Positions 1,991 through 27,285 of a stretch of DNA of 32,207 bases are shown here, in pieces. The position numbers were made by a program, and so were the translations under genes. Positions within the stretch are counted from its first letter, which is position 1. Every line of letters begins with the position of its first letter. The notes under the pieces were generated by a model that worked only from the letters and a program-made list of their open reading frames with translations, had not been told where the DNA came from and made no database searches. This DNA comes from a virus: UHGV virus genome UHGV-1442421. One strand, written 5' to 3'.

Positions 1991-2665
1991 TTAAAACAAT
2001 GATCCAAGCCCACCGATAATGCCGCCACCAATAGCGCCAACAGCCGTACCTATTCCTGGCACCACAGAGCCAATCATCGCCCCTGATGCCGCACCGCTCA
2101 TGGCACCTCCCAAGGCTGATTGCAGTCCTGATGGTCGGTTAGCATTAGCCGCAGATGCTGCCGCCTGCTGTTGATACAATTGGCTGACGTTGTTAGCGTA
2201 GTTCTGTCCGGCATTTGCCTGACCTGTAAGAGCACCAAGGCCGATATTTGCCAGATTGTTGTAGTTGTTCATCTGACCTGACAGCCAGTTTTGACCGAGT
2301 GTAGGTGCGATTGCTGCTAACTGGTTTCCTGTTGCTGTAGAGCCTAATCCACCAGTTGCCTCTGCTGCTGCCAGACTCTGATAGCGCGCCTGCCCTGCAA
2401 GGTCTTTATACTGCTGAGAGTTGTAATACTGGTTAAGCGCCTTACCTTGCCCCTGAAGAGAGGAAAGATTTTGCAACTCTGATACGTACTGCTGAGCGAG
2501 TGGCGTAAACGGTGCAAGGTTCTGCATGTTCGTTTGCCACATTTCACGCTGCAGTTCGATGCCCTTTTCAGTGGCGCGTGCCTGGGCTTTTGAACCGCCA
2601 TCACCGCCACCTTTGCAGTAAACAGTTTTGCTGAGGTGCTTATTGGCAATCTGGAAAATTAACAT
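1991..2665 (-). CDS. DNA ejection protein, P22 gp7-like (224 aa)
   Basis: ORF track; SD GAGGAG before ATG; Gln/Ala/Gly-rich low-complexity protein typical of gp7; gene order. Confidence 0.7.
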   Translation of the reverse strand: MLIFQIANKHLSKTVYCKGGGDGGSKAQARATEKGIELQREMWQTNMQNLAPFTPLAQQYVSELQNLSSLQGQGKALNQYYNSQQYKDLAGQARYQSLAAAEATGGLGSTATGNQLAAIAPTLGQNWLSGQMNNYNNLANIGLGALTGQANAGQNYANNVSQLYQQQAAASAANANRPSGLQSALGGAMSGAASGAMIGSVVPGIGTAVGAIGGGIIGGLGSLF

Positions 2666-3119
2666 TCTTTAGCTCCTCGTATTTTGAGCGCGGTAACTGA
2701 TAAATCGTGATGCCTACAGGCTTTCCATTGCTGGTATAAGCATCATCAAGGTGACCAACACGGGTAGCGCCAAGCAAACGGATAATTGACCGTCCGTATT
2801 TCGTGGTGTCAGGAACCATAGTGATGCTGTTAAGGAATGGTGAGTTTTCGAGAAGCCATTTGCAGAATAATCGATGCCCTTGCAGTGCATATTCGCCACG
2901 GAATCCGGGGTCGTACACCGCATGGCATTCAACAACGCTATGCCAGAAGTTACGCACTTCATGCACTCCGACCAGCATCAGTCCTTCGTAGATGCCGAGG
3001 TATACCGCATCAGGCTTGATGTAGTATTTGTCTCCACTGTCTACGATATTTCCCGTGTTTGCCGGGTTGTTGAGGAATTCTGCAAGCTTCACCGGATTAT
3101 CGATGAGCTTTATTTCCAT
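2640..3119 (-). CDS. P22 gp14-like virion protein (159 aa)
   Basis: ATG at 3119 overlaps the needle stop as ATGA; position between needle and gp7 as in P22. Confidence 0.55.
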   Translation of the reverse strand: MEIKLIDNPVKLAEFLNNPANTGNIVDSGDKYYIKPDAVYLGIYEGLMLVGVHEVRNFWHSVVECHAVYDPGFRGEYALQGHRLFCKWLLENSPFLNSITMVPDTTKYGRSIIRLLGATRVGHLDDAYTSNGKPVGITIYQLPRSKYEELKNVNFPDCQ

Positions 3120-17263: not shown

Positions 17264-17432
17264 CGTCTTCTTCCTCGTACATTGAGCTATTCGGATCGCT
17301 CATCAGTTCTGCGCAGCAGTGCTCACACACGTGAACTTCCAGCACATGCAGCTTCTGACCGCAGTTAGCGCACGTTAAAGCCCGCTCGACGCTTTCTTTC
17401 TGGTATTGAATGGATTGGGATGGGCTAAGCAT
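17256..17432 (-). CDS. ninF: NinF-like small Cys-rich protein (58 aa; below the ORF-track size cutoff)
   Basis: Hand-translated to MLSPSQSIQYQKESVERALTCANCGQKLHVLEVHVCEHCCAELMSDPNSSMYEEEDDE; overlaps antirepressor start. Confidence 0.6.
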   Translation of the reverse strand: MLSPSQSIQYQKESVERALTCANCGQKLHVLEVHVCEHCCAELMSDPNSSMYEEEDDE

Positions 17433-17787
17433 TATTAGCGACCTGCATCATTAGAAATACAATCATGGCTGCGCGGAGAGGCGATTCACCGCAGAAGCAG
17501 TAGTCAGGACCCCAACAACCTTCCTCTAAATCACCTCCTGACCATGCGCACCATTCTTTTTCCGCTGTCATCCACATGGTGCTAATTTTGTTTTCAGTGA
17601 TGATCGGATATGCGTCAGCGGCCATATTACATGGGTCGAAATATCCGCAAGGCAAAAACTCACCACCATCAATTCCAGCCAAGTAAACTTCTTTCTTTTC
17701 TGGATCCCAGTCGTAATTGTTTTTTCCTAGCACGATATGCGCGACTTTTAAGTTAATTTCAAAATCACTTAACTGTGAATAATCCAT
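17425..17787 (-). CDS. Hypothetical nin-region protein (120 aa from ATG at 17787)
   Basis: ORF track frame; internal ATG with GAGGAA 7 nt upstream; several Cys and Trp. Confidence 0.5.
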   Translation of the reverse strand: MDYSQLSDFEINLKVAHIVLGKNNYDWDPEKKEVYLAGIDGGEFLPCGYFDPCNMAADAYPIITENKISTMWMTAEKEWCAWSGGDLEEGCWGPDYCFCGESPLRAAMIVFLMMQVANNA

Positions 17788-17789
17788 AG

Positions 17790-17972
17790 TCATTTCCTCG
17801 CACGATGTCTTAGCCACCGGATATCCCACAGGTGAGCCGTGTAGTTGAAGGTTTTTACGTCAGATTCTTTTGGGATTGGCTTGCGTTTATTTCTGGAGCG
17901 TTTCGTTGGAAGGTATTTGCAGTTTTCGCAGATGATGTCGGTGAAACTTCGTCGCTTGCTCTGCTGGTTCAA
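17790..17972 (-). CDS. ninE: NinE-like protein (60 aa; only a TTG start available)
   Basis: Translation resembles NinE as I recall it; no in-frame ATG and no SD; overlapped by the upstream ORF. Confidence 0.45.
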
Positions 17973-18156
17973 TGGAAATAACCAGGTCTTTGTCGCCTAA
18001 CTGCCAGATAATTCCCTGCTCTTCTTCGTCCCCTGTCATTGCCTCCACATAAGCCATAAGGTAATTCATCATGATGTTTATGCCGTCGACTCCTTCGCTT
18101 TCTGCATCTTCCATGAGGTCAGAGAAACGCTCGATGTAGTCTTCTTCTTCGCTCAT
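17887..18156 (-). CDS. NinD-like acidic small protein (89 aa from ATG at 18156); 3' end overlaps NinE by 85 nt
   Basis: ATG at 18156 with GAGGAA 6 nt upstream; acidic N-terminus [11 protein letters not shown]. Confidence 0.4.
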
Positions 18157-18166
18157 AGCTATTTCC

Positions 18167-19003
18167 TCAGGTTGAACATTCGCAAGGTAATGCGTCGTCA
18201 TCGGCAAACATGTCTATTTGCAGAGCTCGCTCAGCAACTGCTTGCTTAGCAATACTCCAGAATTTTCCAGATGGGACGTGTTCATTTGGCTGAATTCCAA
18301 GTCTTTCCATTTCGGCAAATAACCCCTCCCTTTCCTCCAAATAAACTGCGCCAGCTTCATCCTTGTGAATTGCATATCCGATTTCCTCTTCCGCAGCTTT
18401 CGCCTCATTCCAGATGTCTTTACGAAGCACATAAACGCAGTACCAGTGTTGCCATCCTGCCTTTAAACAGCCAATGCAATTTGCGTGCTTAAATCTCGAA
18501 TAAGCCATTGGGCGGTTAATGCCAATTTCTTCCGTAGAGTGGATTGTTCTTTGCGGCCATAGGGCAATCGGATAGTCAGTTTTATAACCTCGTTCAGCCA
18601 TAACACCCACGCGGCGCTGAACTCGATGCATTTCATTTCTGTCAAATCCGTAGTAGTAGATATTTTCCTTTTGGCTATCATTACGCTCCAGCCACAGATC
18701 AAACGGTCCTGTCTTAAGCCTGTTGGTGCATAGAATTTGACCTGATCCAACTTTCCATGCCCTCGCGTCAAGGCAAACAGATATTGGAGTAGCGTCTTTC
18801 CACCTTTCATGGTTGGCATACGTAACATCTATCCCTAAATAACTTGATATCTCATCCTTAAATCTCTTGATGTCCTCGTCTTCTACTGTGCTACTGATGT
18901 CGTGGTTAAGCAGGATGACATTTTCTCTTCCATATTTTCTGACCACCTCTATCGCGACAATTGCCGAGGAGTGGCCTCCGCTATACAAAACTACGTGCTT
19001 CAT
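18167..19003 (-). CDS. PAPS reductase-like / PP-loop ATP pyrophosphatase family protein (278 aa)
   Basis: N-terminal PP-loop-like motif VVLYSGGHSS; ATG at 19003 with GAGGG 7 nt upstream; occupies the ninC position. Confidence 0.7.
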   Translation of the reverse strand: MKHVVLYSGGHSSAIVAIEVVRKYGRENVILLNHDISSTVEDEDIKRFKDEISSYLGIDVTYANHERWKDATPISVCLDARAWKVGSGQILCTNRLKTGPFDLWLERNDSQKENIYYYGFDRNEMHRVQRRVGVMAERGYKTDYPIALWPQRTIHSTEEIGINRPMAYSRFKHANCIGCLKAGWQHWYCVYVLRKDIWNEAKAAEEEIGYAIHKDEAGAVYLEEREGLFAEMERLGIQPNEHVPSGKFWSIAKQAVAERALQIDMFADDDALPCECST

Positions 19004-19200
19004 GCCCATACCCTCTGTTGATACTTACTCCTACCCTTTGGCTCGCTGGCGTATTCTGGAAGCAACGCGGAAACCACCCATAACCGAGGGTCTGCGCTTA
19101 GCGTTCGTTGAGTTTTTACGTTGCGGGATTGGTAGGCGGTGATTAACTGAGTTGCTTCTTCGTTGGTGAGGTCGTGATGGTGAAACCATGTGAGCTTCAA
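19000..19200 (-). CDS. Doubtful small ORF (66 aa, TTG start only) filling the 195-bp gap between ninB and the PAPS-reductase-like gene
   Basis: ORF track only; no ATG start and no SD identified. Confidence 0.2.
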   Translation of the reverse strand: MKLTWFHHHDLTNEEATQLITAYQSRNVKTQRTLSADPRLWVVSALLPEYASEPKGRSKYQQRVWA

Positions 19201-19607
19201 TCGTACCTCCTGTCAGTGAACCTGACGCTCTGACCGATAGCCCAGGCAGTCGTATACTCTATGAGGCTTGCCATGCGCTTCACACTCATCTGTGCGCTGC
19301 TCTCCCGAATGTTGACGAATTCGCCTTCAAGGCCGCGCAAAACATCAGCTTCCTGCTTTGTTGCCACTGCATGACCGCTAATCAACAAAACCTTCCATTG
19401 TTCTGGTTTTAACCATTTGCCGCACCATTGAACCTGACGAGCGATATCCGCCAGCATCGCGTGAAATTTTGCGTTCTGGTCAAGGTTGCGCTTGTAGTCA
19501 GTAATGCGGATGGTGACTGGCTTGTCTTTATCGAGAGGAGTTGCGAGGATGGCGTTGATTGCGGCTTGCTGTTGTTGCTTAGTTCGGAGGAATATTGTTT
19601 GCTTCAT
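19197..19607 (-). CDS. ninB: NinB / Orf recombination mediator (136 aa)
   Basis: Similar to lambda NinB as I recall it (LDQN, W.GKWL..E.WK motifs); first gene of the nin region after tR2. Confidence 0.75.
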   Translation of the reverse strand: MKQTIFLRTKQQQQAAINAILATPLDKDKPVTIRITDYKRNLDQNAKFHAMLADIARQVQWCGKWLKPEQWKVLLISGHAVATKQEADVLRGLEGEFVNIRESSAQMSVKRMASLIEYTTAWAIGQSVRFTDRRYD

Positions 19608-26590: not shown

Positions 26591-26679
26591 AGGTGTTCGC
26601 GTATTTTTAAATGCGGCAAAGACTGAAGTATTAAATCAGCGTTATTTCCTTGGGCCATGTCCATTCTGAGAACAATCAT

Positions 26680-27285
26680 ATGAGCAAAGAATTTTACGCA
26701 AGACTGGCAGCTATTCAGGAGAATCTGAACGCGCCAAAGAATCAATACAACTCATTCGGCAAATATAAATACAGAAGCTGCGAAGACATTCTTGAGGGTG
26801 TTAAGCCGTTACTGAATGGCCTGTTTTTATCAATCAGCGATGAAGTTGTGTTGATTGGTGATCGGTATTACGTGAAAGCCACGGCAACTATTACCGATGG
26901 CGAAAACAGCCATACGGCAACCGCTCTTGCACGAGAGGAAGAAAGCAAGAAAGGAATGGATTCTGCACAAGTTACGGGAGCTACAAGCTCTTATGCACGC
27001 AAGTATTGCCTCAATGGTTTGTTCGGCATTGATGATGCGAAAGATGCAGATACAGACGAGCATAAACATCAGCAGAACGCAGCAGCAAAGCAATCAAAAC
27101 CATCACCTACACCTGAACAGGTTCTAAAAGCATTCACTGACGCAGCAATGCAGAAAAACACCGTAGAAGAGCTTAAACAGGCGTTCGCCAAAGCGTGGAA
27201 GATGCTCGAAGGCACACCGGAGCAGCACAAAGCGCAGGACGTTTACAACATCAGACGAGACGAATTAGAAGGAGCTGCTGCTTAA
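26680..27285 (+). CDS. erf: Single-strand annealing recombinase, ERF family (201 aa from ATG at 26680)
   Basis: N-terminus MSKEFYARL...YNSFGKYKYRSCEDILEGVKPLL recognised as P22 Erf-like; ORF-track TTG extension rejected. Confidence 0.75.
   Translation: MSKEFYARLAAIQENLNAPKNQYNSFGKYKYRSCEDILEGVKPLLNGLFLSISDEVVLIGDRYYVKATATITDGENSHTATALAREEESKKGMDSAQVTGATSSYARKYCLNGLFGIDDAKDADTDEHKHQQNAAAKQSKPSPTPEQVLKAFTDAAMQKNTVEELKQAFAKAWKMLEGTPEQHKAQDVYNIRRDELEGAAA

Follow-up and report, generated by a model that had tools for sequence, protein, structure and literature searches.

An 86-nt overlap between an acidic open reading frame (ORF) and ninE in a P22-like temperate phage is very probably the scar of an exchange of nin-region modules, which has probably left ninE weak or silent. 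The overlap is real and circulates naturally; it is a case of ordinary phage mosaicism and involves no sequencing error. It lies in the window, by which we mean the whole 32,207-nt stretch of viral DNA that was analyzed (UHGV-1442421). The window represents a P22-like temperate phage or prophage of Escherichia coli with phages HZ41 and IME10 as its closest relatives, and its genes include those for Erf, Abc2, a Q antiterminator, and an integrase. In the region considered here every gene lies on the minus strand, in the order ninB, a 66-amino-acid (aa) ORF, a 280-aa gene in the ninC position, the acidic ORF, ninE, ninX, ninF, a Rha/KilAC gene, and a YbcO/DUF1364 gene. The features used in the analysis are listed here.

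19607..19197 (minus strand): ninB, the homologous left flank common to both parental arrangements; stop codon at 19199..19197
19200..19000 (minus strand): 66-aa ORF opening the cassette; starts with a TTG that shares bases with the ninB stop (TTGA)
19009..18167 (minus strand): 280-aa gene in the ninC position, a member of the cassette, annotated as PAPS reductase in phage Huey
18156..17887 (minus strand): acidic ORF, 89 aa, from ATG 18156 to TAA 17889..17887
17999..17997 (minus strand): TAG closing the ninE frame upstream, which leaves no room for an upstream start
17972..17790 (minus strand): ninE frame, TTG 17972 followed through 60 codons to TGA 17792..17790
17956..17941 (minus strand): crossover patch AGCGACGAAGTTTCAC, 16 nt, native acidic 3′ end versus ninE codons 5 to 10
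17940..17938 (minus strand): CGA in place of the native TGA of the acidic gene, within CAC-CGA at 17943..17938
17940..17887 (minus strand): accidental C-terminal extension of the acidic ORF, in the −1 register of ninE, read to the chance TAA 17889..17887
17787..17425 (minus strand): ninX, from ATG 17787; PF10765 at 9e-14
26650..27285: Erf; PF04404 at 2.4e-44

The acidic ORF and the crossover patch

The first-pass annotation described an acidic ORF at 18156..17887 overlapping a NinE-like frame at 17972..17790, and this was confirmed on the minus strand. The overlap stands, but its length is 86 nt (17887..17972; 83 nt without the stop codon) rather than the 85 nt first given. The ninE frame is the +1 frame of the acidic frame. 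That an alternative frame stays open for 28 codons is not remarkable in itself, the chance of this being ∼0.26 by our own calculation, (61/64)^28.

Residues 1 to 72 of the acidic ORF correspond to a phrog_38761 protein, and residues 73 to 89 are ninE read out of frame. The phrog_38761 profile matched aa 2 to 70 of the ORF (E = 3e-25; profile positions 3 to 71 of 75) and thus ends at residue 70. A protein search gave about 25 relatives in Enterobacter, Salmonella, and E. coli. In about 20 homologues, with identities down to 60%, the native protein is 72 to 75 aa long and ends in AR[LF]H; its C terminus ...SIEPAEQ[T/A]AR[L/F]H holds even at 60 to 75% identity, and the last 17 residues of the window ORF have no counterpart in the 72-aa homologues. 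The ATG at 18156 is preceded by GAGGAAA, and the predicted product has a pI of 4.28. Its AlphaFold2 model, with two helices and a beta-hairpin, reached a pLDDT of only 67, too weak for a fold search. The label "NinD-like" that had been attached to this ORF is, from profile comparison, true only of its position. The acidic ORF gave no match to PF17466 at E ≤ 0.01, whereas lambda NinD matched the same profile at 1.8e-41, and the two proteins fall into different PHROGs (38761 versus 8091).

The native acidic gene stops with TGA directly after CAC. In E. coli RM8082 it ends in ...GAGCAAGCGGCGAGGTTTCAC-TGA-TG, so that the stop codon overlaps the ATG of ninF, and CAC TGA TG is found at the end of the acidic gene both in RM8082 and in the Enterobacter loci. 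The canonical ninE 5′ end, as represented by Sf101, phi80-like phages, and lambda, reads GGAGG-N4-8-ATG/GTG-(A/G)(G/C)G-CGA-CAG-CGA-CGA-AGT-TTC-ACC-GAC. Without any gap, the window is 98 to 99% identical to the native acidic gene of RM8082 down to 17941 and, again without a gap, 98 to 99% identical to canonical ninE (Sf101, phi80-like, lambda) from 17956. The breaks in the megablast alignments agree with these limits: genomes with ninE only are aligned from query position 345 (17956), and genomes with the native acidic gene are aligned to query position 360 (17941). The homology to canonical ninE spans 17956..17790.

The two similarities meet in a 16-nt patch with the consensus AGCG[G/A]CGA[G/A]GTTTCAC, in which 14 of 16 positions are identical between the acidic gene and ninE. 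In the acidic gene the patch takes in the final five codons, and it is offset by one base between the two reading frames; as a result, CGA replaces TGA, and translation continues to the next stop codon. The loss of a stop codon that had been proposed earlier is therefore correct as a description (CAC-TGA to CAC-CGA) but not as a point loss, the cause being a recombination junction. The alternative proposal of a frameshift fusion or an indel does not agree with the gap-free alignments to the native acidic gene and to canonical ninE.

Within the patch, two crossover positions can be distinguished. The window is of the acidic type through 17957 and of the ninE type from 17952 (17952, 17948, and 17940), which places its crossover within AGCG, 17956..17953. 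In the sister junction, here called Huey type after the phage in which it is found, the crossover lies within GTTTCAC, 17947..17941. In 46 of 60 shuffles, two segments of 1.2 kb contained by chance a similarity as good as the 14/16 patch. Since the patch is thus no better than chance, the case for guidance by homology rests on the two crossover variants and not on the strength of the patch; their occurrence within the same patch suggests that the similarity may actually have been used. The patch would be an opportunistic crossover site rather than a dedicated linker. The two variants could represent independent events, or a single event that was later modified by heteroduplex or by patch conversion from canonical ninE.

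We also considered the 3′ end of the acidic gene as a relic of ninE. This found no support: the resemblance does not exceed chance, and homologues with as little as 60% identity retain the AR[LF]H end.

Parental arrangements and the proposed exchange

The acidic gene has two native contexts. In one, the order is ninB, 66-aa ORF, PAPS-reductase-like gene, acidic gene, and ninF, with no ninE nearby. In the other, found in Enterobacter prophages, it is ninB, a complete ninE, acidic gene, and ninF. Both parents of the window arrangement exist, each flank of the junction is nearly identical to a different one of them, and there is no indel at the join. In both gene orders, a very acidic (−16) protein and the very basic (+12) NinE adjoin.

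The left edge of the cassette falls exactly at the ATGA where ninE begins in phages with ninB directly followed by ninE (GACAGGAGGTACGA|ATGA versus |TTGA in the cassette). The GGAGG that serves ninE in those phages is the Shine-Dalgarno (SD) sequence of the 66-aa ORF in the window (−11.6 kcal/mol). The 5′ flank of the acidic gene, GAGGAAATAGCT (18168..18157), is identical to the ninE 3′ end of Enterobacter prophages (positions 2487..2500 of locus L008). No Pfam match was found for the 280-aa gene at E ≤ 0.01. In E. coli A35 this gene is split into pieces of 148 and 87 aa.

How would such a junction have formed? We propose that a three-gene cassette consisting of the 66-aa ORF, the 280-aa PAPS-reductase-like gene, and a 72-aa acidic gene, which elsewhere lies directly upstream of ninF, was joined to a phage carrying ninE-ninX-ninF. 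This would have occurred by a double exchange between two lambdoid lineages, with the left crossover in the long shared ninB and the right crossover in the 16-nt patch. By the right crossover, the acidic gene would have lost its TGA, replaced by a CGA of ninE, and would have run 17 codons into ninE as far as a chance TAA; in the same crossover, ninE would have lost its GGAGG, its ATG or GTG, and its first codons. Homologous recombination of low fidelity may have made the exchange, and the annealing protein Erf that the phage itself encodes is a candidate for the recombinase. Recombinases of the Rad52-like group, Erf among them, have been shown to act on sequences that are short and diverged and to be a driving force of lambdoid mosaicism (PMC3945230).

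The ninE frame and the spread of the junction

The body of ninE is well preserved. Its frame matched Pfam PF05322 with E = 1.8e-41 and 140 bits (gathering cutoff, 25), residues 6 to 60 aligning to positions 4 to 58 of 58, with positions 1 to 3 replaced. As the first-pass annotation had stated, TTG is the only start of the frame, and no SD accompanies it. TTG 17972 is the sole ATG, GTG, or TTG codon in the frame (there is no ATG and no GTG), and the 22 nt 5′ of it pair with the anti-SD at −2.2 kcal/mol, compared to −5.9 to −12.2 kcal/mol for most of the neighboring nin genes. Every canonical ninE checked (lambda, Sf101, phi80-like, and Enterobacter) has GGAGG and an ATG or GTG. The window ninE is without its own SD, its start codon, and its first ∼4 to 5 codons, and so it is no full gene, which would bring a start codon and a ribosome-binding site of its own. 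The RNA around the TTG folds less than shuffled sequences (z = +1.6) and is U-rich upstream, and the fold revealed no regulatory hairpin. Between 17400 and 18400, there was no known RNA element (Rfam), promoter, or terminator. On these sequence features, ninE is probably poorly translated or silent in the window.

The downstream gene ninX has its own SD, GAGGAAA at 17798..17792, inside the ninE 3′ end (duplex, −5.9 kcal/mol), and is therefore independent of ninE translation. A 134-aa ORF called mechanically from a GTG (17829..17425, minus strand) is ninX artificially lengthened upstream over the 3′ end of ninE, and the true start codon of ninX is ATG 17787.

Annotation pipelines differ in their treatment of the junction. 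In E. coli strain S10, PGAP annotates a NinE that starts at TTG and has the same 86-nt overlap, whereas Pharokka calls no NinE in phage Huey and extends the acidic ORF. In a separate case, protein P0047 (73 aa; 16 contigs) has the N terminus ...EVRTRRQRRS, and its sequence suggests a change of ATG to ACG as another route to loss of the ninE start, the gene callers extending the frame into the 3′ end of ninB.

The Huey-type junction was found in the isolated phage Huey, in 3 of 5,426 complete E. coli genomes (S10, A35, and QA-1986 630), and, by an exact-pattern scan, in two IMG/VR contigs. Its 89-aa product was present in 321 index blocks of an assembly collection, corresponding to hundreds of assemblies. 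The window's own type is rarer. The exact window allele was found on two independent metagenome contigs from ENA assemblies (L021 and L022), with the same neighboring genes and at a coverage of ∼2.5×. A third contig of the window type (L013) has ninE followed directly by ninF; there (2501..2797), the TAA of the tail is changed to CAA, which is synonymous in ninE, and the acidic ORF reads 98 aa. The junction was seen with at least four different downstream neighbors. The junction was absent from GTDB species representatives and JGI metagenomes when these were scanned for the exact pattern. The junction is thus present in public records, but we found no discussion of it in the literature. Another protein entering ninE in the same alternative frame, with the same tail end, is P0025 (98 aa; PF05869, Dam), a Dam methylase variant that apparently runs on into ninE through a frameshift near the Dam stop codon.

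Which of the two frames is conserved in the overlap? We compared 21 junction loci, which represent six ninE alleles. The ninE frame was intact in all 21, with 60 or 62 codons. Downstream of the crossover, the overlap contains four polymorphic sites (positions 39, 69, 72, and 84). In the ninE frame all four are third-position and synonymous; in the frame of the tail all are nonsynonymous (H/N, E/K, and T/A), one of them removing the tail stop. The tail is therefore accidental and no conserved coding sequence, and a 17-residue basic tail on an acidic protein has no evident significance. All junction alleles of ninE share 98% identity or more with canonical ninE. The single nonsynonymous ninE variant that was checked, P34Q, is likewise carried by canonical ninE genes with normal starts, which makes a search for ninE decay in the junction lineages uninformative. 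Variation in ninE was most likely imported by homologous recombination, judging from these shared variants, and the synonymous bias in ninE does not prove continued selection on the junction ninE.

Alternative explanations and known systems

The distribution and base-level structure of the junction bear on several other ways in which the overlap might have arisen. That a sequencing or assembly error, either a 1-nt indel or a miscalled stop codon, joined two normally separate genes has a practically negligible probability. It would account for the odd appearance of the locus, and the two contigs with the identical allele do have a coverage of only ∼2.5×. However, the window has no gaps against either parent, the identical allele is present in independent assemblies (L021 and L022), and the sister junction is present in three finished E. 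coli genomes and in isolated phage Huey; the sequencing-level indel suggested in the first-pass annotation is thus excluded. A programmed +1 frameshift, for example at UUU-C (17946..17943), would yield a fusion of the acidic protein with NinE. The relation of the two frames is the right one, tRNA-Phe could re-pair from UUU to UUC, and the acidic (−16) and basic (+12) proteins adjoin in Enterobacter prophages as well, although in the opposite order. Nevertheless, the A-site holds neither a rare codon nor a stop codon, and the sequence lacks an SD-like stimulator upstream, an Rfam element, and a stable structure, which leaves a bare UUU-C. That site is a by-product of the crossover, and in the native gene a stop follows two codons further on; the acidic gene is also known from loci without a nearby ninE, and the native gene has no ninE frame downstream of it. 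We consider such a frameshift highly improbable. Finally, an intragenomic deletion between short direct repeats could have fused the genes in an ancestor that had the acidic gene, its stop codon, and a complete ninE in that order, and the 14/16 repeat could well have served for such a deletion. This route seems quite unlikely, however, for no such ancestor was found, scanning GTDB genomes and JGI metagenomes brought no further cases, and in every native context it is ninF that lies 3′ of the acidic gene, with ninE, where present, upstream of it.

A different question is whether ninE still works. With the same recombination origin, translation could begin at TTG 17972 and give a 60-aa NinE with a basic N-terminal motif. 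Several observations are in keeping with this: none of the 21 junction loci, which comprise six alleles in at least four downstream contexts, has a disrupted frame; a length of 60 aa is that of lambda NinE, and KRRSFTD mimics RQRRSFTD; the TTG lies in the weakly folded stretch with U-rich sequence upstream; and PGAP annotates the TTG-started NinE. On the other hand, the TTG has essentially no SD (−2.2 kcal/mol) and lies inside a translated ORF, whereas all canonical ninE genes have GGAGG, and Pharokka calls no NinE in Huey. The intact frame may itself reflect recency and the import of alleles rather than selection, given the identity of at least 98% and the presence of P34Q in canonical ninE. 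A working ninE is therefore possible but somewhat doubtful. Going further, the acidic protein and NinE might be functional partners made together, through an SD-independent TTG start or a +1 fusion, so that the overlap would be useful. We think this very unlikely; if it were true, the junction would have spread by its usefulness and not merely because it is tolerated. Whether weak, silent, or functional, ninE in this state would be tolerable, since NinE has no known function and the nin region is deletable: the whole region can be removed, and plaques still form (PMC10695390).

With a module exchange as our preferred explanation, the locus can be compared with known systems. The lambda nin region has the same operon position and the same tight packing of overlapping small genes, and the genes of the nin locus are famously interlinked (PMC8022706). 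In lambda, ninD and ninE overlap by 34 nt and ninE begins with a non-ATG codon (GTG), and thus an overlap and a non-ATG start are normal at this locus. In contrast to the window, lambda has GGAGG four bases 5′ of the ninE start, the overlap is in the other register, and the upstream gene encodes the Cys-rich, 57-aa NinD (PF17466), which is unrelated to the acidic protein. As for whether intact reference genes share the overlap, a point raised in the first-pass annotation, the lambda overlap thus reaches only 34 nt, while the 86-nt overlap is kept in many genomes.

A closer parallel is offered by the lambdoid mosaic boundaries attributed to Red-beta, RecT, and Erf (De Paepe et al. 2014, PMC3945230). 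As in those cases, the partners are related temperate phages, synteny is preserved, a long homologous flank (ninB) is combined with a short diverged patch, and the window has an Erf gene. The present case differs in that the patch is of 16 nt and lies inside two genes read in different frames, so that the event damaged both, and in that the recombinase is only presumed. The locus also resembles 5′-truncated prophage pseudogenes, in which a dispensable gene has lost its initiation signals and kept its body intact. It differs from them in that an isolated phage, Huey, also carries the junction, which has reached many backgrounds, and in that the inactivity of ninE is putative.

The feature belongs to a familiar class of events, in which lambdoid mosaicism damages genes as a side effect, and the junction opens no new biological question. 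It explains the inconsistent annotation of this locus by PGAP and Pharokka, and it is a caution against taking such an overlap for a sequencing error or for dual coding. It provides an example, at base resolution, that a lambdoid mosaic boundary can fall within genes and that an imperfect 16-nt patch may be enough for a crossover site. It also indicates that a read-through tail and a headless neighboring gene can be retained and become widespread when they lie in a dispensable part of the phage genome.
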